DNA of 58,374 bases, filler included, from Dugesia japonica (lineage: Eukaryota), in assembly GCA_001938525.1 (NCBI GenBank). It is 5 parts of 5 records of this genome, joined end to end, with 100 filler letters (N's around TTAATTAATTAA, not from the genome) between each part and the next. Parts side by side here need not be neighbours in the genome. Positions count along the whole stretch, not along the records: positions 9,639 to 19,076 come from MQRL01643409.1; 4 more parts are not named here. One strand, written 5' to 3'. The notes under the pieces were generated by a model. That model made no database searches and had not been told where the DNA came from. It worked only from the letters and a program-made list of their open reading frames with translations. Positions 8,657 to 58,000 of this stretch are shown here, piece after piece (the first letter of the stretch is position 1; every line of letters begins with the position of its first letter). A program made the translations under genes and the position numbers.

Positions 8657-9186
8657 ATGGAAACAAAAATTAATCTTGATAATAATATTAATTTTCAACT
8701 TTTATATTTGAAAAATGATGTTTTAAGAATTTCACCTTCATCTGGTTCAATTAATAATTTAATNNNNNNNNNNNNNNNNNNNNNNNNNNNNNNNNNNNNN
8801 NNNNNNNNNNNNNNNNNNNNNNNNNNNNNNNNNNNNNNNNNNNNNNNNNNNNNNNNNNNNNNNNNNNNNNNNNNNNNNNNNNNNNNNNNNNNNNNNNNNN
8901 NNNNNNNNNNNNNNNNNNNNNNNNNNNNNNNNNNNNNNNTCTTCAGATGTAGAAATAATTAATGATCCAGGAATTTCATCAACAATATTAAATTTTGTAA
9001 CAACTAGTTCAACCTATAAAAATATTCATGGAGAATTATCAGGATGAATTCCAGATACGAACAAAGGAGATTTAGATGTAGAAGGTCTTGATACCAATCT
9101 TGGTTTTTATAAAAAGAAATTTGAAGGTTATTTTCCTTTGAAAAATTTATTTGGTTTTTTACAATGTTACAACAGATTGTTATATA
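8657..9186 (+). pseudogene. Polinton major capsid protein, N-terminal fragment (second copy)
   Basis: METKINLDNNINFQ...INDPGISSTILNFVTTSSTYKNIHGELSG*IPDTNKGD...KKFEGYFPLKNLFGFLQCYNRLLY aligns directly with the MCP at 57357-58000. Contains a stop and a gap and is truncated by an insertion. Confidence 0.85.
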
Positions 9187-9638: not shown

Positions 9639-9734
9639 ATTTCTTTTTTATGGTTGTTTTTATCGTTTTATTTCTTTCTTCGGTTTGTTCACCACTTAGT
9701 GGGTGTTTCACTTCAACAAATCGCTCCCCGTCTT
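9639..9734 (-). promoter_or_regulatory. Polypurine tract (about 9724-9734) and start of 3' LTR (TG at 9718-9717)
   Basis: Minus strand reads TTCCGGGACGGAATTTAAAC-AAGACGGGGAG-CGATT-TGTTGAAG, a Gypsy-type PPT/LTR junction. The LTR is cut by the contig end. Confidence 0.65.
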
Positions 9735-9988
9735 GTTTAAATTCCGTCCCGGAATTTGCCATAGCTCGTACCCATTGCAGAACTTTTTTACCCTAATAAA
9801 ACCGACAGATTAAGGTAATTTTAAGGTCATTACCTGTCCATTGATAACACATGCAAATAAAAATTACTACATTATACATTTACTACGGTATACATCGATA
9901 CAGGTATAGTTCAGTTATTTACCAAGATCAATTAGTTATTATAGTTTAATAGTTAATTACAGTTTATTTACATCGAGCTTCCCTTGTT

Positions 9989-11143
9989 CTAATCTACTTC
10001 TTCCATTATGCTGCTCGGGATGTTGGTTCGGGGTTCAGACCCATATTTACGTAGTATTTCTGTCACGATCGAATGAGACAGGTTTCTTTTGAATTGATTA
10101 TGAGTCAATATGGAGGTTTTACTGTGTAGCTGGTTGGGCGCTGCAGGACCGAGTTGTTTACTCTGAGGTTCTTGTATTACCAATGGTACCGGTTTTCTAG
10201 NNNNNNNNNNNNNNNNNNNNNNNNNNNNNACCTGATCAATTATTTGGTTTATCCATTCCGGTATTTTGGATTTAACTGGAGTCAAACGGGGTTCCTGGAT
10301 TATTAACGGTGCGAATTGCCTTGGTATGCTGGACATTATTGGTTGCCATTCTGGAGCGGCTGGATTTAGGGTTGATTTAGGGATGTTTATGAGCCTCATG
10401 CTGGTGGAGTGTGGTAGAGCTGGTGTGACGATTGGATGAGATATAGGCCGGAACTTACTATGAGTTTGTTGTAGCTCTTAAATGGTTGAGAATTGTTCGA
10501 TCAGGTGTTGTTGTTTCTCTGCGATTTCTTTCTCTCTTTCTTGGCAGAGTGTTCTTAATTCGATAATTTCCTGTTCTAGAGCTTCTATATATTGTTGAAA
10601 GAATTCGTTCTTTTGTTGACATTCCTGGATTATGGATTCGAACTCAAAGGACAATTTTTCGATCCCAGCACGTACACCTTCTCTATTAGCTAAACTTGTC
10701 AGGAGTTGGTTTTCGGTGGAGAGGTGGTTCTTTTCAAATTGGGTGTTGAATAATTCTAATTTTAATAGTTGGGTATTTTCCCGTTCTATCGTCAGTTGGA
10801 ATTCCAATTCTTTGCATTTTGGTTCTATGTTTTCGTATTTACTTTTCCATTCGCGGGCCTGTTTTATTGCGTTTATTTTTGCTCGGTTGGCATCAATGTT
10901 GCTTTTGATATACTTTTGATGGGACTTGCAGGAACGGTTCTTAATTTCTAACGCCTGGCACGCTTTTTCTACTTGATTTTCTAATTTGTTATTATACTCT
11001 TGCAATTGCAAATTTGTGAGGGCATTGATTTTGGAATCGAGTTTTCATTTTAGTAATTCTGGTATTGTGGTCAAGGTTTGAGTTTGGGCCTGCAGTACTT
11101 GGATCTCGTGGCGTAAGTGATTAATTAAATTTTCGTTATTCAT
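9989..11143 (-). pseudogene. Retroelement accessory protein: long coiled coil plus Pro-rich tail with PAM2-like motif
   Basis: ATG at 11143 and ORFs 10478-11011 and 9989-10399 share one frame, separated by single stops. Heptad-rich N-terminal half; STLNPAAPEWQP in the C-terminal part. Confidence 0.7.
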
Positions 11144-11450
11144 TTTCTAAAATTAGAGAGAGGAATTATTATGATAAAATTTTGACAATTATAATATATA
11201 TAATTATTTACATATTTCATGTTATTTATTTAGTAATTTGCCCCTAATATTATACATTATTTACATATTTTAATCCTATTCTTTAATGAAATTTTATTCC
11301 TAGTGCCCGTCGTTTGATTAATTTTCGACACATAGGGCATTCATTTAAATTTATAGCACAGTTATAACATGTTTTGAAGTTTCCGCAGAGCAGGAATACA
11401 ACCTCTATGGTTTCGGTAAGACAGATAACACAATCGTGATCAAGCAATAC

Positions 11451-12479
11451 TCATTCTGGCTCATATTTTTTCTGAGGTTTTACTGATTGATGTGATAGTT
11501 GATATAGTTCATAGGGAGAAACTAGTTCAGTACCTCTTTCGGCGACCATCTGTTTCAGTAATTGTTGGGTGGTGAGCAGGTTTAATTTTAAAATAGATGA
11601 TAGTCGATTGGCCTGTAATTCCACTGCCATTTCTATTCTATGTTTGGACATGTTCCATTCTATTCTGCATGTGGTTGGTCTTATTGCTCCTTGGTTGACT
11701 GGGTTTAGTCCGGAGCATTTTGCTTGATGGAATAATTCGGAGGGTAAATTTTCTACTCCTTTTAATATCAAAGTTTCCCGTTGGCAAACGATGCATTTGA
11801 CGACTCGGTCATTGACCCTTTGTACTACTTATAATCCATCCAACGCCCTGTCTTTCAAGCTGGATAAGTCTATGAATGTTTTCTCTCTTTCCTCGATATT
11901 CCATCTCAGATCTTCTGGGAATGATACTACGGCTAGATTCTTTATTACTTTACAATATAACTTTTTTGTGTTTCTCCATTCTTCCTCGATTTCTAATCTT
12001 TTACCTTTGATTACTGTCGTTTGATTATTTACGTCCAAATCCAATAGAAATGGACATGTCGGGAAACATCGTTTGTGTACCTTATTTGGTACTTCGTGGC
12101 TGCCCCATTTGTATAGGATACCTTGGCAGTATATACATTTTACTCTATCTGGTCGCTCTTTGGTACCGGCATAGTAGAATTCTGATTTAGCTATGGTTTC
12201 GATAAGACCATGTAAATATTTAGGTAATTGGATTAATGATTGTTTCCTGACACTTTCGTCCCGGTACTTCTCATCGAATACTTTCATTACGCTATAACAC
12301 ACCCTTCTTCTGATAAAATTTTCCGGTGCAGCTAAGGTGTTACGATAGTGCATTATTTGTTGAGTTATCGGATTTTGCTGGATTTCTGATCGTCCATGGC
12401 TCATAACAAATAATTCGATATCCGGATCTTCCAACAATAGTCTAGCTTCTTCTATTGATAACTCAAAATTGAATTCCAT
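11451..12479 (-). pseudogene. BIR-domain (inhibitor of apoptosis-like) protein: one canonical and one degenerate BIR, no RING
   Basis: IAKSEFYYAG...DRVKCIYC-x16-H-x6-CPF is the canonical Cx2Cx16Hx6C BIR signature. The frame continues through one TAA (11829-11831) into ORF 11451-11771, giving a second BIR-like unit. Confidence 0.88.
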
Positions 12480-12699
12480 TATCTAAAAAAGGTACATTAC
12501 ATAATATTGTTTTTTATATTATTCCCATACCGTTATTTATTTAGGTGGTTTTCCCTTTTCTGACGTATATACCCATAAACATGCATATATATAAATATAA
12601 ATATTTTATTTGTTTATTTACTTATTTATTTGTTTATTCCTTTTTTATCTAGTTTTATCTATTTTATAAATTTTTTTTTTAACTTCCTCTCTCTTTGAT

Positions 12700-13374
12700 T
12701 TAGACGAAACTGACTGGGTTGTGGACACTCCGGGTCTTGAGTGTCTTAATTTCCCCTTTTTGTGAATTTACTATTTTTTTAAGGTATTCAATTTCTTTTA
12801 TCCGTTCGGACATTAGATCATGTTGTTTGGCTACCAACTCCATTGTATAGTTTTGCTTCTCTGCAATGTTTTCTAGCATTCGTCGATTTTCCACTAGTTG
12901 CTGACGACACATGAGGGTTTCTGCGTGGAGATTTTTGTTCTGAAGTTGTAGGATTTTATTTTTGAATTCCAGTTTGCACCACTCTAATGGTTTTGTTGTT
13001 ATTAAAGTTTGTATTAGTTGATTTTGATTTTGCTCCAGTTTTTCTAAACGTTGTTGAGTCCAGTGGGTTTGTGTCTTAGCACTATTCCACAATTCGCCCA
13101 TTGCTACGTTATGATTTTGCCAGATTTCGTTTATTGTTGTCTGTGTTAATAATTTGTCTGTACAGTTATTTGATTGCGAGAAATTTCTAGTAGGAGATGG
13201 GCTTGCATTAATCTGGGAATACCTGACTTCGTTTTCGGTGGTTATCTCTTTTCGATTCATTTCTAAATGTGAAACATTAATTAACTTCGTTGTTGTTTTT
13301 GTTCTATTTACATATTTGATAAGTATATTTATTTTTACATTATTTACAGGTGCTTTCCCCATATTTAACATACC
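12700..13374 (-). CDS. Retroelement accessory coiled-coil protein
   Basis: Open frame 12700-13536 with a Q/E/K/L-rich heptad C-terminal half. The 5' overlap with the env-like ORF is probably non-coding, so the true start is uncertain. Confidence 0.6.
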   Translation of the reverse strand, partial: GMLNMGKAPVNNVKINILIKYVNRTKTTTKLINVSHLEMNRKEITTENEVRYSQINASPSPTRNFSQSNNCTDKLLTQTTINEIWQNHNVAMGELWNSAKTQTHWTQQRLEKLEQNQNQLIQTLITTKPLEWCKLEFKNKILQLQNKNLHAETLMCRQQLVENRRMLENIAEKQNYTMELVAKQHDLMSERIKEIEYLKKIVNSQKGEIKTLKTRSVHNPVSFV

Positions 13375-14975
13375 ATTATACCCGGTGCCTGATAGTATCC
13401 GGCCCCGTGCACTGGTAATGTGTATGGTGGGTTTTCCAGTAAAATTCCATCGTAACTTGGTGGGGCGATAGGCAATTGCCGCTCCCTCTTTCGGTGGTGG
13501 GGTTTCTTTTTCTTTGGTTTTGAAACACATAGGCAAATAATACTAATTGATAATATTGCAATAATAACTCCTCCGATTCCTAACACATATCCGAGTTCTT
13601 GACTTCTTGTTAGTGGTAATGTGGTCGTAATCCTTATAGGGTCCATCGTAATTGTTTCTATACCTTCCTGGTGAATCGGTCTTGGCTCCATTTTGCGTAT
13701 ATTTGACATCCAGTCGTTCAGAAACTCCGCTCTTCTTACTTCCTTCCCCAGGTTTTCCGGTGTGGTGGTTGTTTGGATTTCGGTAGTAGTTGATAATTTG
13801 GGTATAGGTGTTGACATTTTGGTAATTTGCTTTTGTTTTCCTTGGGTTTTCGTTTTGGTTATTATATCCTGATTAATAACGGTGATGAACTTGAATCCGC
13901 TATATCCTCTGCTATCGAATTTCCATCCCCACTCATAGAGACTCTTGAGTGTATGTACTACTAATCTTTCTACGTTTTCTCTGAATTGCATGTGATATAT
14001 ATCCTTGTCCCTTTTTACCTGTAGAGGGTATGGTCCTGGTTGCCAATATGGTTTCCATCCTTTAAATTCTTGATTGGATATGGAGAGTATCCCATGACCT
14101 TGAATAATTGTTATGCTCTTCTGACCTAGATCTCTGCCTTTCTTATTCCACACAACCGCTCTGTACAACATGTGCTGCCATAACATGGTATGGTAAAGGT
14201 ATTCCTTCTTTGGACATATTTTAGTTAGCTCTCCTTCGTTATTTGTGGTTATCCATTCTTTGTACTTGAGGTTACTCTCCGAATAGGATAGTACAAGGTT
14301 CATTTCTTGGAGTTGTTCGATTTCGTAGTTTGCTTCATAGACCAATGGGCTCTTTTCATTTTTTAACGTTGCGTCCCAGAATTTTTCTACCAGCCAATTA
14401 CGGGCGTTAATTGACAATAGATTTACTTCNNNTGGTCCTTGACTGAAGAGTTGTATGATAATTTTCTTTTCTGCTTGATGTAGTTTAATCAACGTGCTTT
14501 TTTGGCTTTTGATTGCCGGATTTAGAGTTAGTTGCCCATAACTATAAAGTGCTTGGGTTCTTTGTTCCCTCCGCAGCCCGATATGACTTATTGTTACGGC
14601 GTGTAATTTCTTTTCCTTGATGAATATCCCATGTTCCGTTAGCACTGGTTCGTTTATCTGGCATTCTTGTCCACTGATTCTTTTTAGGATTATCATTATG
14701 GTTGCCAGTATGATTTGTCCACTGTGCATCCTATTCTGAGATACCGCTCGCGTTTGTGGTGTCGCCAAAGTAGGTAATGAGAGTCCTACTAAAATTATTC
14801 CGGTGATCCCATATAGCATTAGTGATATGGGAAGTCCTCTTTCCATATTTCTGATTAACCTCATTGTCAACCATATTAATATGCCATAGTCCCAATTTAT
14901 GTTGATTACTGCCCATAACATTAGAGATAATCTCATTATTATTTCTGCCGTATTCCTCTGTTCCTTTTCTTGCAA
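13365..14975 (-). CDS. Env-like membrane protein
   Basis: 536 aa at the env position. N-terminal hydrophobic segments, ectodomain, Thr-rich stalk, TM helix LGYVLGIGGVIIAILSISIICLCV, KPKKKK stop-transfer, cytoplasmic PPSY. No known fusogen family recognised. Confidence 0.7.
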   Translation of the reverse strand: MQEKEQRNTAEIIMRLSLMLWAVININWDYGILIWLTMRLIRNMERGLPISLMLYGITGIILVGLSLPTLATPQTRAVSQNRMHSGQIILATIMIILKRISGQECQINEPVLTEHGIFIKEKKLHAVTISHIGLRREQRTQALYSYGQLTLNPAIKSQKSTLIKLHQAEKKIIIQLFSQGPXEVNLLSINARNWLVEKFWDATLKNEKSPLVYEANYEIEQLQEMNLVLSYSESNLKYKEWITTNNEGELTKICPKKEYLYHTMLWQHMLYRAVVWNKKGRDLGQKSITIIQGHGILSISNQEFKGWKPYWQPGPYPLQVKRDKDIYHMQFRENVERLVVHTLKSLYEWGWKFDSRGYSGFKFITVINQDIITKTKTQGKQKQITKMSTPIPKLSTTTEIQTTTTPENLGKEVRRAEFLNDWMSNIRKMEPRPIHQEGIETITMDPIRITTTLPLTRSQELGYVLGIGGVIIAILSISIICLCVSKPKKKKPHHRKRERQLPIAPPSYDGILLENPPYTLPVHGAGYYQAPGIMVC

Positions 14976-15065
14976 TAGTTTCTATTTTGGTTTACTTGGT
15001 TCTATTTGCTCCGCTTCATCCGATATCCAGATCATTTTCCTTTTCTTTGCCCTTTTAGATGTTGT

Positions 15066-16498
15066 TCAGACTATTTGCTTTCTTCCCCCATCTTCTTGAC
15101 CTTGTACCTTTTTCTTTGTTGACTCTCTTTGTTTTTTCCATTTTCCGATGAGTTTTGTGATATCCGTCCTTGATGTTCTCTTTATCCTTTGCAATTCTAA
15201 TTCTGTATTTCCTGAATTTGCGGTAGGTAGACCCGTTTCTTGTTTTATTAAATTCTCTTTTTCCGGTATTAATCCTTCCCCGTTTTCTTCAAACTCAGCG
15301 TCCTCGCTGAGACTGTTCTTCTTCATCACTGTTTCCTTACCCCCTGGTAAAGGAGTTATTAGTGCTTTACTGAGCACCGTCATGGCTTGCTGTGATCGTA
15401 ATGGATAGCTATGTGATATATTTAGTTCCAAGCTTTCCGACTTACGTGGCCGACCTGGCCCTTTCCGGTCGGTCGAGGTGATCTCAGTGCTTGGTGCTGG
15501 TGTGGCTATTTCTGATGACGCCGCCTTCTTACACAGGTTGGCGTGGTATATTTTAGGTTTCTCCAATAAGTTTCCCTTTTTCCGAACCTTGAGATTAGTT
15601 TCTGTTACTTCAATCACCTCATACGGTCCTTGCCATGGTCTTTTTAATTTCGAAGTAGTGCCGACACAGATGTCTGGCAGATTGATTAATACCATGTCGC
15701 CTTTTTTAAAGGAACTTTTCATTGCTGATTTATCATGTAGATCCTTGTAGCTTTCCTGGTAGAAACCTACATTCTCCTTTGCCTGTTTCCAGATTTTCTG
15801 CATGGTTTCCTTGAAATTTGCCGCAAAATCCGTTTCGTCTTGATATTGTGTTATCGGTGGCTGAAATTCTAAGTCCATAGGCATGTTGCACTCCTTACCA
15901 TACATTAGACCGAATGGCGTATATTTAGTTGCCGGATGTACACTCATCCGATACGCGAATAAGCAAAGTTGAATATGTTTATCCCAATTATTTTGTTCNN
16001 NNNNNNNNNNNNNNNNNNNNNNNNNNNNNNNNNNNNNNTTAAATCGTTCCGTTAACCCATCCGTTTGTGGGTGGTAAGGTGAGGTTTGTAATTGGTGAAT
16101 TTTTAGGAAACTTGATACTTCGGCCAAAATGTTGCTCATAAAGTTCTTCCCTTGATCCGTCAATATTCTCTTAGGTGTACCATATCTACTGAAAATTTTT
16201 CGCACCAGGATATCTGCGATGATGGTTGCTTTCTGATTTTTCATAGGGAATGCTTCTGGAAATTTAGATAAGTAATCCATTATGGTGAGGATGTAGATAT
16301 TCCCGCTTAACGTGGGTGGTAGTGGTCCTACCACATCCATAGCAATGATTTCCATTGGTGCTGCTGGTACTGCAAGGGGTTTTAGTAGGGCTTTTACTCT
16401 TTTCCCTGTTCCTCTTCTGGCTGCACATATTTGACATTTAGCGATCCACTCTTTCACCGACTCCGTCATGTGTGGCCAGTAATATTTCTGTCTTAGTT
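15066..16498 (-). CDS. pol: Gypsy integrase with GPY/F motif and C-terminal extension
   Basis: YYWP..CxxC zinc-binding end, MDVVGPLP, TDQGKNF, SPYHPQTDGLTERF (DDE), WQGPYEV, then PGRPRK and HSYPLRS. Confidence 0.95.
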
Positions 16499-16747
16499 NN
16501 NNNNNNNNNNNNNNNNNNNNNNNNNNNNNNNNNNNNNNNNNNNNNNNNNNNNNNNNNNNNNNNNNNNNNNNNNNNNNNNNNNNNNNNNNNNNNNNNNNNN
16601 NNNNNNNNNNNNNNNNNNNNNNNNNNNNNNNNNNNNNNNNNNNTTCTTTAAATGCTCTTTCATCTTGGGCTCACATTCTAATTTTTCTAAATTGTAATTT
16701 TCCATATATTTCGTGATGGTCTTTATCTCCTCGTCGTCTATTTGCTC

Positions 16748-18826
16748 CTATTTCAATCCGTCGAAATTTCTATCTTCGGCTAAAATAAAATATACCATGC
16801 CTACTTTCTTTTCCAACAATTCGCGTAAGGTAAACGTTTCTGTATCTTTTGGTGTGTTGTCTGTAGCTTCTGGTCCGCCGATTCTGGACAGGCAATCGGC
16901 ATTGGAGTTTGCCTTACCGGTTTTAAATTTTAATAGGGGACAATAATCTTGCATTGCCAATTGCCACTTGGCCATTCTATTCCATCGCAGTGGTTTCTGN
17001 NNNNNNNNNNNNNNNNNNNNNNNNNNNNNNNNNNNNNNNNNNNNNNNNNNNNNNNNNNNNNNNNNNNNNTGTTTAGTGGCTTTTACAATAGCCATTATTT
17101 CTCGTTCTGTGGTACTGTAGTTTAATTCTGCTCCTTGAAATTTCTTGCTGAAATACGCTATTACTCTTTCTCTCCTTTGTTCATCCAATTGACTTAATAC
17201 TGCGCCCATCGCGTATCCACTAGCGTCGGTGGCTAGTATAAATGGCTTTTTAAAATCTGGGTGTACCAGAATTGGTGCTGTCAGCAATTTATCTCGTAAT
17301 GTTTCGAATGCCTGTTGTTGTTCCGGCCCCCATATGAATGCAGTGTCTTGTCTGACCAATTCTTGCATAGGTTTTGCGATTTTTGCAAAGTCCTTGATAA
17401 ATTTACGATAATAGTTTGCGAGCCCGAGAAATTCTTGTATTTTAAGCACACAATTTGGTGGTGCTAGATTTCGTATCTTCTCTGTGTTTCGCGGATCTGG
17501 TTCTTTCTCTTTATCAGATATGAGGTGGCCTAAATATGTCACCTTATTCTTGGCCCACTCGCATTTGGTAGGTTTCAGCTTTAAATTCCATTTACGCAAT
17601 CTCACGAACACACTTCGTAAATCATTGAGATTTCCTTCGAATGTTAGGGAGTAGATTAACAGATCATCGATATAGGCCATACATTGAGATATGCCGTGTG
17701 TCACGTAATTCATCATTCGTTGAAATGAAGCTGGGGCATTGGTAAGTCCAAATGGCATACGGATAAACTGATACAAATCCTTGCCTGTAGAAAAGGCTGT
17801 TTTTTCTCTGTCTTCTGGTTTGATCTTTATTTGCCAGTAACCGCTTCGTAAATCTAGTGTGGTGAATATTTTAGCATTACACACTAGTTGCAACAGTTCA
17901 TTGATATCCGGTAATGGGTATGTATCTTTCTTAGTCTGGGCATTTAATCTTCTGTAATCGATACAAAATCTTTGCGTCCCATCTTTTTTATCTACTAACA
18001 CCACTGGCGACTGCCAGGGTGAGCAGCTGGGTTCTATAACGCCGATTTTCACTAATTTGGCTGTTTCCTTATTTGCGAATTCTTTTTTCTCCACTGTCAT
18101 GGCATATGGTTTTTGTTTACATGGGGTTTCGTCTGTCAGTGGAATGGTATGCATGGTTGCGGTGCACATGCCTAATTCCTCATCGGTCCATGCAAAAATA
18201 TCTCGAAATTCCTCTAGTAATTGCAGTATCGCTTGTTTCTGATTCTCCGTCAAAGTCTCGGTTTCTACTTTAAATGTCCGATCGATTTCTGGTTCGGCGG
18301 CTACTTCGTCCCTTACGGCGGGTTCTGGTTCGATGGGTGTTAATGTGCCCATCCTGGAATTTGGCTTGATTTTGATGTCTTTTTCCGTGAAGTTAATCAG
18401 GCTGACTGGTATTTCCCCACTTTTATTTACGGTGGTTATTCCTCCTGCCGTAGGTAGTTCGTACTGGTGTGCAAATCCGTCATAAGGTTCAAAATAACTA
18501 TCTCCTTCATAAGCACTTTTGGTGCTGACCACACAATATACTTGACATCTACTTGGCACCAAAATTTCCTCTGTGGTAAATACCTCGTGATCCTTCACGT
18601 GGGTATATCCTTCCAATGATTGTAATCGTAATGTTGAGAAATTCAATATTCCATTTTTCATCAATACGGGAAGAATGTCTGTTCCTAAGATGCATTGTCC
18701 CATCATTTCTACTACAATCATATTATGTCTAATTTTATTGTCTTGGTACTCGACTTCACAGGTCAATTCCCCAAAAATTTTTAGACTACCACCATTAGCT
18801 ACATCTGCTGTAGTGTTCGTAGGCAT
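16748..18826 (-). CDS. pol: Gypsy Pol: protease C-terminus, reverse transcriptase, RNase H
   Basis: ILGTD; SPWQSPVVLVDKKDG, RFCIDYRRLN, LDLRSGYWQI, RMPFGLTNAPASFQ, YIDD; RNase H TDASG...NYSTTERE...ADCLSR. Confidence 0.97.
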   Translation of the reverse strand: MPTNTTADVANGGSLKIFGELTCEVEYQDNKIRHNMIVVEMMGQCILGTDILPVLMKNGILNFSTLRLQSLEGYTHVKDHEVFTTEEILVPSRCQVYCVVSTKSAYEGDSYFEPYDGFAHQYELPTAGGITTVNKSGEIPVSLINFTEKDIKIKPNSRMGTLTPIEPEPAVRDEVAAEPEIDRTFKVETETLTENQKQAILQLLEEFRDIFAWTDEELGMCTATMHTIPLTDETPCKQKPYAMTVEKKEFANKETAKLVKIGVIEPSCSPWQSPVVLVDKKDGTQRFCIDYRRLNAQTKKDTYPLPDINELLQLVCNAKIFTTLDLRSGYWQIKIKPEDREKTAFSTGKDLYQFIRMPFGLTNAPASFQRMMNYVTHGISQCMAYIDDLLIYSLTFEGNLNDLRSVFVRLRKWNLKLKPTKCEWAKNKVTYLGHLISDKEKEPDPRNTEKIRNLAPPNCVLKIQEFLGLANYYRKFIKDFAKIAKPMQELVRQDTAFIWGPEQQQAFETLRDKLLTAPILVHPDFKKPFILATDASGYAMGAVLSQLDEQRRERVIAYFSKKFQGAELNYSTTEREIMAIVKATKXXXXXXXXXXXXXXXXXXXXXXXXQKPLRWNRMAKWQLAMQDYCPLLKFKTGKANSNADCLSRIGGPEATDNTPKDTETFTLRELLEKKVGMVYFILAEDRNFDGLK

Positions 18827-18835
18827 TATGTTTTT

Positions 18836-19063
18836 TTATTCGGTTATTGCAATTTCATCGATAGATAACAGTGATATGGTGTCTCCGGTATCCACTAGAG
18901 CGGTTATGGGTCGACCGTTAATTTTAATGATAATAGTTAATACGGGTCCACCATTGAGACCTGCGCATACTACATTCGATGAGATATTACCGGCATTTGT
19001 TTGTGTTTTGCTTTTCCATCTGGGTTCTCTCTCCTGGAACCGTATCCAGTCATCCTTTATCAT
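18836..19063 (-). pseudogene. pol: Retropepsin active-site segment, frameshifted from the rest of Pol
   Basis: INGRPITALVDTG catalytic motif. The frameshift lies at an A-run near 18830-18838. Confidence 0.85.
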
Positions 19064-20189
19064 GGTGGTTGTATTGNNNNNNNNNNNNNNNNNNNNNNNN
19101 NNNNNNNNNNNNNNNNNNNNTTAATTAATTAANNNNNNNNNNNNNNNNNNNNNNNNNNNNNNNNNNNNNNNNNNNNAAATGGATAAATCTGATACATCAT
19201 TGAATAATTATTATTGCTGATTTAGCAAAAAATGAATCAATTTGATCCATAATTATTATTATTATTATTTTCTCTTAAAAATTATTTATATATTTACAAG
19301 AAAACCTTTTTTAGAAGTTAAATTGATTAATACGAGAACTCCTACACATAGAATTGTATTATATTTAATAATTTTTTGTCGAAAGTAATTCATTCTTTGA
19401 ATATTTTATTGAGGTAATAATTTTTTTTAACCCTCTCTTTTGATATATATAATTATAATAAGCTACATAATTAATTTATACGGGATATAAGTTACTTCTA
19501 CTTGTTGGGTGGAATCGACATAAGTTTTTACCCTTTTAAATATTTATAAGACTTATTGAGATAAATACTGTTACCTTCAACGATGTATAATAAGTAATAA
19601 AACCATAATAATTTATTTATGTCATTTTATCCATTCGAACATCCAACAAAATTATATTCGATACATTATGTACTTATTATAGTGACAAAATATTTTCAAA
19701 TTACCGAAAACTGAATTTTGAATAAATGCTATATGGAAATTTTATAAATTGCCAAAAAAGGAATTGGAATACCGTTCCAATACGCTGGGTTGAATACAGA
19801 CATTTATTTTTATTTGATTTAACTGTACGATTTCTAATATTATGTGACAATCCTTTTTCAATATATTTTTATTTACAATATTATTTTACCACAAACGTAA
19901 ATTGTTTATGAAATTTTCACTGAGAATTTTATGATAATAATTTATAATAACAATTAATGTAAATTTTAATTGAATGGAAAATTCTACAATCCATAATAAA
20001 AATTTTAGGTACTTGTCTTGAAAATTCATCAAAATAATCATTTAATTTAAATTTAATTGTGTTATTGATATTCAGAAAGTCAAGTTATTGTAGCATTGTT
20101 TATTCTTGCAAATTTCAACCAAAATGAATTTTTCGAAATTAATCCAGCTGGTGCATGATACGCATAGTAGCATTTCGTTTTTTTAATAG

Positions 20190-21288: not shown

Positions 21289-23700
21289 AGTAGGAGGATA
21301 CTAGCGCACGATACCACCATGTGTGCGAACCCCCCCCCATTAATGATGTAATTTGTGCGATTATCTGTAATTTGATTGTTTAATCTATGATGTAATTACA
21401 TCANCGGAAATTTATCCATCAATTAAATTTATTATGTAATTTTTAATTTTTAATTTTTTCAGGCTTTTTAGGCGGTAAAAAAATTTTCCTGCGGTTTTAG
21501 TTGGCAAAAAATTTTCCTGCGGTTTTAGTTGGCAAGAAATTTTCAAGGCTTTTTAAGCAGCAATTTTAGGATTTTTAAGCTGGAGTATTTTTTAGGCTTT
21601 TTAGGTGGCAAAAATTTTTTCAAGTTTTTTTTAGGTTTGGAATTTATTCGGTGAAATCGAATGAGGTCAATTTTTGATTGGTTCAGGTGAATTTGGTTGA
21701 CAATTTGCTCAGTGAGGTCGAATGAGGTCAATTTTCGGTTGGTTCAGGTGAATTTAGTCCAACATTTCCTCGGGATTGCTCGGTTAGGATAATTTTTTTT
21801 TGGGTGATTTGGTCGAATATTTTCTCGGGATCGAGCGGTTTGGGTAATTTTTGTGTGATTTGGTCAATTATTTTCTTAGTAATGGTTAATTTGGTTCATT
21901 TTTGTGCGATTTGGATGAAATTTCCCTCGGGAATAGTCAATTTGGGTCAGTTTTTGTACAATTTGGTCAATTATTTACTCGGTTTGGGTAATGTTGGTCA
22001 ATTAATTACTAGATATGGACGAACTTGGTTAATTATTTGCTCACAAGGGTAATTTTTAGGTGAATTTGGTCAATTATTTCCTTGGTAATGGTTAACTTGA
22101 TTAATTTTTTGGGTGAATTTGGTTAATTATTTAATCGGGATTGATTAGTTAGGGTAATTTTAGGGAAATTCGGTCAATTTGGGTCAGTTTTGGACGATTT
22201 GGTCAAATATTTGCTCACAGTGGTCAGATTTTGGTTGACAGTGCTCAGATTTTGGATGATTCGGTCAATTATTTTCTCAGTATGGATAAACTTAGTGGTT
22301 GGTTTTCGGTGGTTTTTGGAAAATGGTCAATTATTTGCTCACAAGGGTAATTTTTAGGTGAATTCGATCAATTATTTCCTCGGGTATGGTTAATTTGGGT
22401 CAGTTTAGGACAATTTTGTCAATTGTTTACCAAGTTTAGGTAATATTGGTTAATTACTTACTCACAAGGGACAGTTTAAGGTGAATTTGAGTGATCATTT
22501 TCTCGGGTTTAGTCAGCTTTGGTTGAATTTTAAGGAAATTCATTATTAAAGTCAAATTTGTTTAAATTTTAAAGTTTTTAAAAATTTTTAAGGGAATGTT
22601 TTATAGGAATTCTGGCAAACCTTTCATGTTGTTTAAATAATATTAAAATTTAAAATTTCTTGAATGAAATTTTCATGGGAGTCTGGGTGAACAGTCTAAA
22701 TTTTTGAAAAAATATGTTCTATATCTCAGATTTCATAGATTTTTATACCAAACTGCTGAGAATTTTACGGCGATCCTTTTACACAAACAAACATTTTTCG
22801 AAAACATTTTCCTTCTCAAATATGTTAAGAAAGTTTCTATTCGATAGAGAACGTTTCGTTGATTCCAAATATGTTAACCTAAAATNGCCAAAGTTAATAC
22901 TCGATGAAATAAATGGGATTTTGTGGTGAAAAATCTGAAATTTTAAATTTTTGTACTCAATTTTTTCTGTGAACATAACTCGTATGGTTTCAAATTTAGT
23001 ATTATTTCACTCAGGAGGTAAATGTGACTGTGCAAAGTTTAAATATCGTCTGGAGAAAAATGCTTCCTAACGAATATGTAAAACTGACCTCCCGGATTAT
23101 GGTAAGGAACCATCCATTAAGGACGTCCCTAAAAAATAGCACTTTTTGACATCCCCTCCCTCTTGCCACTTGTCCATTTCTAGGGCCCCCTGTTGTCCTT
23201 ATGTGCACCTTTGTGGAGACCCCCTCCCCCCATTCCGAGAAGACGTCCTTAATGGATGGTCCCTAAATTCTTCGAAAACATAACAAGTACCTCAAAATTT
23301 ATCGACTTCTATAGGAACTTTTACGATGAGTACGAATAACGCAGTTAAAAATCATCAAACCTCAAAGATAAAAAGTTATATTGAAAAAACAAGTACTTTA
23401 TTTAGAGTCACCAAGGAACATAAAAATATGATAATTTATTCGGTAAGGTCAATTTTGGGTAGTTTTTTAGATGAATTTAGATGAAATTTTACTCTTCACC
23501 TGTCATCAATTATCAGAACTCTTAACTAATGCTAAGACTTCAGAACTCTGAACTCTGTACACATAATGTTAATACTCTATACTCTGCCCACTAGATTTCA
23601 GTTATCAGTGCTCTGCTTACAGTACACTGATTTTTAGTTATCATTGGTGTTCTCACTTTTTACAAGTCTTTACTTTTGACTATCCCTTCAAATCGTCAGT
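21289..23700 (+). mobile_element. Polinton-like left terminus and long subterminal arm with degenerate tandem repeats
   Basis: Starts AGTAGGAGGATACTAGCGCA. TTGGTCAATTATTT-type repeat array at 21650-22500. Inverted homology to about 29750-31689. Confidence 0.55.
23106..23263. mobile_element. PIF/Harbinger-type MITE (158 bp)
   Basis: 22-bp TIRs GG(A/G)ACCATCCATTAAGGACGTC with one mismatch, flanked by TAA target duplication. Confidence 0.85.
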
Positions 23701-34800: not shown

Positions 34801-35335
34801 AACTTAGTGTAAATCCTTCGTCAAGTTTATAAATACAAGTTTATGTAATACAAAATAATACAAATAGATTACAANNNNNNNNNNNNNNNNNNNNNNNNNN
34901 NNNNNNNNNNNNNNNNNNNNNNNNACGAGATATAAACTTCATCAGTATGTGGAATTATCTTTTTAACTTTACCTGGATATTTACAAATTAATTCTTTAAA
35001 AAACAAATGATTATCGTAACCAGATGCATTGTGAAAATAAAAAGATATAAATAAAATTTTTATTGATTTATCTTGTAAATTACATTTTGAATGAGAATAT
35101 CTTCTTAATTCCCCATTGAAATGATAGTGATCTAAAACTAGATTTTCAGTTATTGGTTTGTCACAATATCCACATTTTAAGTGAGCTTTCTCACTTTCCT
35201 CAAGTTTCGGAACTTCACCTTAAAATCTTTCGATTAATTTATTTTCTTTAATATCTTGTGTAACTTAGTGTAAATCCTTCGTCAAGTTTATAAATACAAG
35301 TTTATGTAATACAAAATAATACAAATAGATTACAA
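34801..35335. repeat. 74-bp identical direct repeat (34801-34874 and 35262-35335)
   Basis: AACTTAGTGTAAATCCTTCGTCAAG...TAGATTACAA occurs twice. The first copy runs into a gap. Confidence 0.85.
34925..35260 (-). pseudogene. Protein-primed PolB fragment (second copy)
   Basis: GEVPKLEESEKAHLKCGYCDK...VLDHYHFNGELRRYSHSKCNL...FHNASGYDNHLFFKEL...KIIPHTDEVYIS aligns with 49335-49630. Confidence 0.88.
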
Positions 35336-37604: not shown

Positions 37605-38057
37605 TTAATATACATAAGTCTTAATCATATTTACTTCATCATAAAAATCTAAATTCTTCAAATCAGTTAATACTATTTTCCTTGAATGGAAAACATTCAC
37701 ACACAGAGAATTAAATTTAATTAATCGAAGACCAGGAAATATTTCCGGTTCATACATACAATTTGTATTTTCAGCCGATTTCTGTAAATTTATTGTCATC
37801 TTCAAGCAAGCTGTCACTGTCAATGATTGTATTTCATCAACAAATATTTTGAATGGAAATTCCTTTCTGTCTAATGGCTTTTTACAACCCATTATTCTAT
37901 ATTTTTTACTTGGAAATATGATTATTGTATACTCTAGATACTTTAATACACATTGTTTCAGCTTATAACCAAATCGAAGACCACCTAAGTTTTCTGTCGT
38001 ATGTCCTTTATAGTTTATATTCAATAACATTACAAAAAAACAGTGACTTATTTCCAT
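37605..38057 (-). CDS. Minimal, divergent TATA-binding-protein-like protein
   Basis: Repeat 1 end TIIIFPSKKYRIMG. Repeat 2 IQSLTVT...INLQK...MYEPEIFPGLRL...VNVFHSRKIVLTDLK, compare TBP YEPELFPGL...IF.SGK.VLTGAK. 150 aa, intronless. Confidence 0.8.
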   Translation of the reverse strand: MEISHCFFVMLLNINYKGHTTENLGGLRFGYKLKQCVLKYLEYTIIIFPSKKYRIMGCKKPLDRKEFPFKIFVDEIQSLTVTACLKMTINLQKSAENTNCMYEPEIFPGLRLIKFNSLCVNVFHSRKIVLTDLKNLDFYDEVNMIKTYVY

Positions 38058-56045: not shown

Positions 56046-56615
56046 TTAAATATCAAAACAAAAGTTTCCTGGTAGGAAATTTTCACTCACTCTTATTGAC
56101 TTTCGCTCTCTTTGACTCTCACTCTCTTTCTTCTTCAAACAAATCACTGTTTTGAAAAGAACTTCCATTAAAACTTCAGCTTCTCTATCTAAATAGTAAT
56201 AATTATATTTAGTTTTCCAATGTAAATTTACATTATAGTCATATTCCATTTTACTTGAAAATATCTTACTGAATAAATCATAATAAACATTATCTTTATC
56301 AGTTTTGTTTAATTTAAAAAATATAAAACAGTTGGAATTATTTCGAATAGAGTTTTTATCTAAATGGAAATATGTTTGAGAAATATAAATTACATTACAA
56401 TTTACATGCCTTCCTCTAGTAAAATAAATTTTCTGGATTTCTTGATCTTTATCATTTACAACATCATCAAAAATTATTAAATTCTTTTTCTGTTTAGATA
56501 ATTTATCACAAGGAACAATTTCATTTGCTTTATTACTTAAAATCACATTTATCAATCTTGGGATAAAGTCTTGGTTTATTTTTTTAAGTAATATTTTATT
56601 AAAATTTTCAAACAC
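56046..56615 (-). pseudogene. A32/FtsK-like packaging ATPase lacking Walker A
   Basis: Walker B LIIFDD, FTRGRH, IYISQTYF, IRNN. Confidence 0.9.
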
Positions 56616-56681
56616 TTTTAGTTTTATCCATTTTATATGGAACTCTTTTGGGATTTTAAACTTGAAATTAATTATACAACT

Positions 56682-58000
56682 TTATTTTAAATCTAAACTT
56701 TCACCTCGTTTATTTTCAATCATAACAATTTTACTATTTGATAATTTCATTTCAATATGCCTTTCTTCTAAAATACACCAATATAAAATTCCTTTAAAAT
56801 CAGGATCTTTAGTTATATGTAAAGTTATATCTACGGTATTAATATTTAATTTATCGTCTTGGGAACTAACATCAAAACAAAAGATTGGATACAAATTACC
56901 AAACTCTTGTAATGATAACTGAGGTTCACAAAAGAACTCTTTACAACAATTTACATAATTTAAATGTGGAAAAATCATTTTATTATTATCAATATTAAAT
57001 TTACATTCATTTATTGGGTAATATGTATTATTTAATTGTACTTAAATACTTTTGAGAGAATGTTTTGTTGTAATTTTTTCTTTCTTTTCATTTTCAAAAG
57101 TTTTACTAATTTGTTGGATAAATAAATTATTATTCTTTTGATATGATATTTTTAAATCTTTTATTACAATAAATATATATCTTGGTTTATAAGTTAAATT
57201 ACTTAGTTTAACTGAATAATAATTTCCTGAATCTAAAGTTGTTTTTGAGGTAATTCTATTTAAAAAAGAAACTTGAATAGATTTATTTGTGTTGATTCTT
57301 TCCAATAGATTCACTTCCATTTTAGGAACTAATCTACATTCTGGAATTTGTAATTCTTAAGTTATTAATTTTAAAGTTGCGGTTTTATCTTTATCTCCAA
57401 AGAATAATAATTTATCTTCTATTTGTCGATTACATATAAATTCAATCTTTGTATTATACAATAATCTATTATAACATTGCATAAATCCAAATAAATTTTT
57501 CAAAGGAAAATAACCTTCAAATTTCTTTTNNNNNNNNNNNNNNNNNNNNNNNNNNNNNNNNNNNNNNNNNNNNNNNNNNNCATCAACATCTACATCTCCT
57601 TTGTTTGTATCTGGTAACCAACCTGATAATTCACCATAAATATTTTTATAAGTTGAACTAGTTGAAATGAAATTTAATATTGTTGATAAAATTCCTGGGT
57701 CGTTGATTGTTTCCACATCTGTAGATCCCAAAGTAAATCTCATTGATTTAAACAAACTTGGAAACCAATTATTTTAAAAAGTTATTTTTTCTCCATCTTT
57801 AACATCAATCTCTACTCTAAAATATGCCATTGAATTAGAAATATCTAATGGATTTGAAGATTGTAAATATTGAAAACTTATATCTTCAAAAGACTTAAAA
57901 TTATTAATTGATCCAGATGTTGGTAAAATTTTCAAAACATCATTTTTCAAAAATACATGTTGAAAACTAATATTATTATCGAGATTAATTTTGTATCCAT
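56682..58000 (-). pseudogene. Major capsid protein (double jelly-roll, Polinton type)
   Basis: ATG at 58000, with fragments 57357-57755, 57042-57320 and 56682-56978: NNWFPSLF..VETINDPG, PLKNLFGF, KPRYIFI, F..LYPIFCFDVSSQ. Confidence 0.88.

Follow-up and report, generated by a model that had tools for sequence, protein, structure and literature searches.

Among the described systems, the planarian Burro elements are those closest to the locus reported here. They are over 30 kb long, encode a polyprotein of 4,873 aa, show env homology between gag and pol and contain BIR motifs, for which a meddling with host apoptosis and ubiquitylation has been proposed in the part of PMC6431247 that was available. 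Burro1 is the one retrotransposon with a captured IAP that is reported to help the host, and its B-IAP, which combines a RING with a BIR, is reported to shield stem cells against death through caspases (Lee et al. 2026, as cited in the available portion of PMC13465017). The presence of an IAP in an LTR element has, thus, a precedent. The LTR elements of bdelloid rotifers carry captured frames 3′ of pol, with env, a GDSL esterase and a DEDDy exonuclease as cargo, in the accessible sections of PMC5408684; those of PMC8532177 and PMC13238120 added nothing on cargo. In the literature searched, no other LTR element with the layout described below was found, and the supplements of planarian genome papers may include the present element.

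As for the proteins themselves, the BIRs of IAPs recruit partners, and the RING ubiquitylates them as an E3 ligase; caspases and antagonists are the partners of type II BIRs, which are essential for anti-apoptotic action, and signalling proteins those of type I BIRs (excerpted text of PMC3972657).

A Ty3/Gypsy Element with Four Frames 3′ of the Integrase

The window analysed in this work is a stretch of 58,374 nucleotides from Dugesia japonica, in which N-flanked TTAATTAATTAA spacers connect five pieces of the assembly. The IAP-type gene is found in the piece at positions 9639–19076, whose GC content, about 35–40%, is above that of the remainder of the window. The minus strand of this piece, on which all the features of the element given below are located, holds, in order, the end of gag, protease, RT/RNase H, integrase and four further frames, namely a membrane-protein frame, an unassigned frame, the IAP-type gene and a last frame. 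Protease-RT-RNase H-integrase is the arrangement known from Ty3/Gypsy elements, and it is the one observed here; the element belongs to a Ty3/Gypsy family with many copies and is one of the decayed ones.

The end of gag and the start of the protease, with its DTG motif, are at 18836–19076, where the element is truncated by the assembly spacer. The pol frame (16748–18835) contains protease, a weak dUTPase-like stretch, RT and RNase H, as judged by Pfam (RVT_1, E 5e-33; RT_RNaseH_2, E 6.3e-34), the dUTPase-like stretch between protease and RT being below the cut-off (E 0.012). It is followed by the integrase at 15066–16670, in which Pfam recognised an H2C2 zinc finger and rve. These pol domains support the retroelement context that the initial annotation had given to the IAP-like gene. 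A search with pol retrieved distant Gypsy pols alone, with at most 49% identity among the 120 matches listed, which gave the family no name.

In the env position, and in the frame of the integrase, a membrane-protein frame extends over 13365–14981, with signal-like and transmembrane stretches and hydropathy peaks at 49–56 and 461–472; a furin site and an N-glycosylation site are absent, Pfam and the PDB gave no match, and the Atlas no useful one. Integrase and membrane-protein frame (13365–16670) form one frame with two stops between them, both read otherwise in about all the contig depth, and the element family may be able to produce a fusion of pol and membrane protein. The tail of this joint frame carries a PPSY motif. 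The unassigned frame (12700–13542) has a coiled-coil look, judged by eye, with no match in Pfam and nothing usable from the Atlas. The last frame (9989–11143), of 384 codons with two internal stops, is located behind an acceptor-like TTTTAG (11152–11147); it appears coiled-coil-like and then proline-rich, and its two larger pieces gave no Pfam family above the cut-off. At the 3′ end (9651–9989), a purine tract at 9989–9978 and a TG at 9972 are likely the start of the 3′ LTR, which is cut by the spacer. These marks are found at the 3′ end only; the second LTR is absent from the piece, whose 5′ part was removed by the spacer.

Several other features were observed in the window. Broken frames at 56046–57773 (minus strand) matched the Pox_A32 packaging ATPase (E 5.2e-7) and a double-jelly-roll capsid (E 5.1e-10 and 1.1e-5), and are likely a remnant of Polinton/Maverick type; an inverted copy of this region, 85–91% alike, is found at 8666–9186. 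At 37605–38057 (minus strand), Pfam TBP (E 5.6e-10) identified a fragment of the domain of TATA-binding proteins, and a weak endonuclease VII match, below the cut-off (E 0.0032), is located at 34869–35219 (minus strand). A diverged satellite-like repeat of about 51 nt is present at 21630–22530 and 15–450, in opposite orientations in two pieces.

Layout of the IAP-Type Gene

The IAP-type gene (11283–12479) starts at the ATG at 12479 and comprises 398 codons plus the stop, interrupted by two premature stops, a TAA at codon 217 (11829–11831) and a TGA at codon 343 (11451–11453). From 12479 to 11283, it encodes an N-terminal segment, BIR1, a linker, a divergent BIR-like domain (domain 2), a helical linker and a RING. 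The ORF 11451–11771 of the initial annotation is in frame with this gene, begins at a Leu codon and represents a mere fragment of the interrupted reading frame.

BIR1 covers about residues 64–146 (12042–12290) and was recognised by Pfam (BIR, E 1.5e-12). Its zinc motif, C115, C118, H135 and C142 (12137–12054), has exactly the canonical Cx2Cx16Hx6C spacing that had been claimed for it, and BIR1 supplies the at least one BIR of this spacing by which an IAP is recognised. The predicted model of BIR1 has a pLDDT of 74–93 in blocks 71–140 and superposes on the BIRs of XIAP, cIAP and DIAP1 with Z about 12–13.5, including XIAP BIR2 (VIA Z 13.5, rmsd 2.0, 89 aligned). The model of the full-length protein has a mean pLDDT of 51 and is poor outside BIR1, with the RING under 50, and the fold searches made with it were filled by BIR1.

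Three predicted helices (residues 279–330, 11490–11645, pLDDT 57–76) are located in the position that UBA has in cellular IAPs. When compared with cellular IAP linkers, the present copy scored −0.7 bits, with shuffles reaching 5.6, and the relative P0002, described below, 34.5 bits; P0002 is the only one with a sequence match to cellular linkers, and Pfam UBA gave no match.

The initial annotation had stated that no RING follows, and this proved to be wrong. The same frame continues after the TGA into an IAP-type C3HC4 RING finger of 55 codons (11286–11450; Pfam zf-C3HC4_3, E 2.2e-12, 47 bits with a cut-off of 27). Seven of its eight ligand positions are kept in the present copy, the remaining one being a non-ligand residue. 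A C-terminal C3HC4 RING is, thus, part of the gene, behind a stop and with one altered ligand position in this copy.

Just 5′ of the ATG of the IAP-type gene, a splice-acceptor-like TTTTAG is found at 12483–12488. Only two of the 193 minus-strand ATGs of the element have TTTTAG just upstream, those of the IAP-type gene and of the last frame, each after an AT-rich spacer. Because of this acceptor-like site, the IAP-type gene would likely be made from spliced RNA, and the sequence suggests spliced sub-genomic RNAs for both frames, as for retroviral accessory genes. Three raw RNA runs, of which 6 to 25% was covered, gave 0 reads at 11700–11900; as these runs bore no sign of the organism, the result does not bear on expression.

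Domain 2, a Divergent BIR-Like Domain

Domain 2 (11703–11906) is split by the first stop. With the TAA read as X, its sequence is EEREKTF...ALDGLXVVQRVNDRVVKCIVC-x18-H-x3-C, with C229, C232, H251 and C255 (11795–11715) as candidate ligands. R-E-x-T-F, G, C-x2-C, H and C are invariant in the four family members covering this domain, and the spacing is Cx2Cx18Hx3C in three of them and Cx2Cx19Hx3C in the fourth, which differs from the canonical Cx2Cx16Hx6C. Since the odd spacing is common to all four, we regard it as an inherited trait and not as decay. Counted from the second Cys, the last Cys is about as far away as in a normal BIR, and the His is three places later than the canonical one, at a place where 96 of 430 canonical BIRs also have a His. 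The simplest account would be a shifted zinc ligand, such that the His precedes the last Cys by four residues rather than by seven. Cx2Cx18-19Hx3C is not diagnostic by itself, since it also fits 90 of 150 other listed matches, owing to an additional His within canonical BIRs.

The kinship with BIRs comes from profile comparison. The family profile of domain 2 aligned to that of 427 canonical BIRs with an hhalign probability of 95.9 and a score of 41.9, whereas the highest score among 100 column shuffles preserving the CxxC was 22.8; thus, the second BIR-like repeat that the initial annotation had seen hidden across the TAA is real. Pfam BIR matched domain 2 in two of the four members, with a best E of 0.0012. 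When the protein of the present copy, read through its stops, was submitted to Pfam, as had been proposed, BIR1 was found, whereas a second BIR and zf-C3HC were not; zf-C3HC gave no match in any of the four domain 2 segments either. The domain 2 profile against PDB sequences returned three matches at E ≤ 10, none of them a BIR. A conserved Cx2Cx18-19Hx3C domain is, therefore, without a Pfam match in half of its four members and weakly scored in the others, and IAPs of this sort are likely under-annotated as one-BIR proteins.

Domain 2 was also folded alone, on the four sequences. The best model has a mean pLDDT of 66 (46–51 in the other four), its order of elements, helix-helix-three strands, agrees with that of a BIR, and its His/Cys end, with pLDDT 45–53, does not resolve the geometry of the zinc site. 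Among 48,161 solved chains, 15 matched this model at Z ≥ 2 and all were BIR or BIR-like, 14 being IAP BIRs and the 15th Pml39 (Z 2.5). The matches are weak, with Z from 2.5 to 4.9, the best one having an rmsd of 2.9 over 66 aligned positions; Foldseek listed BIRs in 41 of 42 rows, none under E 0.43. Altogether, domain 2 is BIR-derived and probably BIR-folded, with putative zinc binding.

Other Copies of the Element and Decay of the Present One

All 30 bins of the piece received contigs from four runs, each of which contributed 7,736 to 34,813 records, for the most part with less than 95% similarity; the IAP-type gene, too, is present in many copies in every one of these runs. The element family is large and diverged, and contig depth is no measure of copy number. 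In the 201 bases from 11700 to 11900, 468 contigs of the DNA run X1 were aligned, 329 of them under 95% alike. At the TAA site, 33 contigs of this run have an open codon, corresponding to 2999.7 of 3045.8 of the summed depth (98%), so that the sense codon anticipated at 11829 in other copies does exist. The TAA is, therefore, private to the present copy and not a stop conserved in all copies, one of the two findings that, together, the initial annotation had named as refuting its reading. Stops of the neighbouring frames at 10478–10480, 14982–14984 and 15066–15068 are also read otherwise in about all the depth, which indicates that the present copy is decaying and that the family is open.

The two Cys codons of domain 2 showed no variant at or above 10%. 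This does not extend to the His and last Cys codons, which are close to the end of the stretch, as the variant rows of 11700–11900 include none within about 35 bases of either end. The other 17 variant rows of domain 2 comprise 6 synonymous and 11 non-synonymous changes; since they mix private and family changes, no claim on selection is made. Low-depth contigs in three runs skip 11349–11618 and 11671–12022, which corresponds to internal deletions in some copies. The product of the present copy could be at most a piece of 216 residues, ending inside domain 2, and the copy itself is dead and ordinary.

The IAP-type gene is intron-free, its strand and order are collinear with pol, and its base composition (A 0.38, GC 0.37) is similarly A-rich to that of pol (A 0.37, GC 0.40). 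Together with the many copies, these traits argue that it is part of the element. It could be objected that the gene was picked up once, by this copy alone, belongs to an adjacent repeat or was joined to the element during assembly, since no listed contig spans pol to the IAP-type gene in another copy, a complete LTR pair is absent from the piece and the window is made of five spacer-joined pieces. We consider such an accidental association very improbable, because the gene recurs in many copies in every run, has the strand composition of the element and sits within the single piece 9639–19076, between the integrase and the purine tract with its TG.

Relatives of the Encoded Protein

A search of 1.84 billion representative proteins gave 1,570 matches at E ≤ 0.001, and most of the 150 listed cover BIR1 only. 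The close family among these 150 consists of P0002, P0017, P0057, P0072, P0075 and P0127, which share with the present copy the segment before BIR1, BIR1 and the divergent domain 2. P0017, P0057, P0072 and P0075 are partial sequences. P0002 (UniParc UPI000602CAF0, 483 aa) aligned end to end with the present copy, with 36% identity over 406 columns (E 3e-82), as did P0127 (369 aa), with 26% identity (E 4e-33). Both are open at the two breaks and have Pfam BIR and RING matches, the RING being C-terminal as in the present copy; as they run through both breaks, the intact form should be about 400 aa long.

This length bears on the proposal of the initial annotation that the ancestor was a RING-less protein of roughly 340 aa. 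The TGA at 11451–11453 lies outside the stretch 11700–11900 and is not among the 40 variant rows listed out of 1,814 for the whole piece, which would leave room for a family that ends at the TGA as a two-BIR protein of about 340 aa, with the RING as a relic or reached by read-through only. We judge this very improbable: the reading frame runs on into the RING, whose score is 47 bits with seven of the eight ligand positions intact, P0002 and P0127 are open at the TGA, and four of the six internal stops counted in the element were seen as private. Thus, the RING-less ancestor is not supported, and a family protein of the BIR1-domain 2-RING type is preferred.

P0075 is encoded on a metagenome contig of 1,170 bases (locus L001, 689–940), in which the similarity stops at a GTAAGT followed by AT-rich DNA. 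This may be the intron of a host gene, as the sequence of this one locus hints, and, if real, it would point to a spliced host gene as the source of the intron-free copy in the element. A quick tree was computed from 19 whole proteins, made up of six family rows and 13 non-family two-BIR RING proteins (P0075, too short, was excluded). The six family rows were separated from the others by a branch with an SH-aLRT of 100, in a tree with long branches. Further members were sought in several ways. A word-index protein search with the read-through protein passed none of 1,919 candidates; the same search with the family alignment passed 4 of 6,131, with no new family member. None of three pattern matches in viral contigs was confirmed, and at least one family locus was found among the 592 metagenome stretches listed.

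Possible Function of the IAP-Type Gene

On the strength of the complete IAP layout and of the Burro1 precedent, we suggest, with a probability of roughly 60%, that the IAP of the intact element would be an anti-death ubiquitin ligase, dampening cell death where the element is active. According to this proposal, a spliced host mRNA would have been captured by the element, and intact copies would make the IAP from RNA spliced at the acceptor-like site. A partner would be recruited by BIR1 and possibly also by domain 2, which may hold zinc with its His four residues before the last Cys, and would be ubiquitylated by the RING, as in DIAP1 and the cIAPs, and the element would benefit through the survival of the host cell.

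Which partners could be recruited depends on the BIR type. A Glu before the zinc His is a mark of type II BIRs (available text of PMC8917759). In an assignment that rests on whole-protein alignment, this Glu was found in only one of the six family BIR1 sequences (P0002), versus 287 of 430 canonical BIRs, the other five having K, R, V or L; the groove Trp is kept in five of the six. In domain 2, both the groove Trp and the type II Glu are absent from all four sequences. The groove residues, thus, do not appear to support caspase or IBM binding. The IAP-like role of the initial annotation stays as the leading hypothesis, whereas its proposed binding of caspases or IAP antagonists comes out weaker.

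These residues are also the basis of the main rival explanation, in which the same gene of the same element would encode a signalling scaffold and ubiquitin ligase acting outside apoptosis through type I-like BIR surfaces, in innate-immune signalling or the removal of a restriction factor. The residues K, R, V or L that precede the zinc His in most BIR1 sequences and the missing groove of domain 2 would fit it, as type I BIRs bind TRAF/TAB1 and not IBMs in the sections available of PMC8917759 and PMC3972657. On the other hand, the groove Trp persists in BIR1, P0002, which is the closest listed relative, has the type II Glu, and the sole element-borne IAP tested is reported to guard against caspase-mediated death (PMC13465017, as far as its available part goes). 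A non-apoptotic ligase is, in our opinion, rather unlikely, and we retain the anti-death ligase as the working hypothesis.

Comparison with Known Systems

The BIR-BIR-(linker)-RING order of the present gene is that of the cellular two-BIR RING IAPs, of DIAP1 type or molluscan BIRC2/3/7-like (e.g., P0020 and P0030), and of baculovirus IAP-3 (P0159 cluster), the textbook example of this arrangement in a mobile genome. Unlike these proteins, it has a domain 2 with Cx2Cx18-19Hx3C spacing and a family-specific segment before BIR1. In the BIR-like domains of zf-C3HC/Pml39 type, the His is four residues before the last Cys, and domain 2 is similar to them in this position and in having Pml39 as its 15th structural match; it differs from them in that Pfam zf-C3HC does not match it and true BIRs rank higher.

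As for the element, it resembles the bdelloid rotifer LTR elements in its post-pol frames, in a membrane-protein frame in the place of env and in a weak dUTPase-like stretch in pol; its IAP cargo has no counterpart among the cargoes named in the available sections of PMC5408684. Like the Burro1/GYPSM1 giant Gypsy elements, it is a Gypsy-type LTR element with BIR and RING and extra frames. It shares with Burro the dUTPase-like stretch between protease and RT, weak in the present element, and the proposed protection of the host cell; the stretch is common to the rotifer elements as well, and a kinship with Burro may exist. Compared by description, the two differ in that the membrane-protein frame is here after the integrase, the region 5′ of the protease being outside the window, and in that the IAP is here a separate 3′ frame, with its own acceptor-like site and a second, divergent BIR.

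Tentatively, and at less than even odds, we propose that the locus stems from another capture of an IAP by an LTR element, independent of that in Burro1. The captor would be a Gypsy family of compact, retrovirus-like build with spliced accessory genes, whose BIR-BIR′-RING ligase would contain an undescribed zinc-finger BIR subtype and derive from a host gene lineage with the same domain. If so, buying the survival of the host cell would be a repeated strategy of retrotransposons and not an oddity of Burro. A differently built, many-copy element with a BIR-BIR-like-RING gene offers a second case, next to Burro1, in which to consider whether such buying of host-cell survival is common among elements, and whether it is selfish or mutual.
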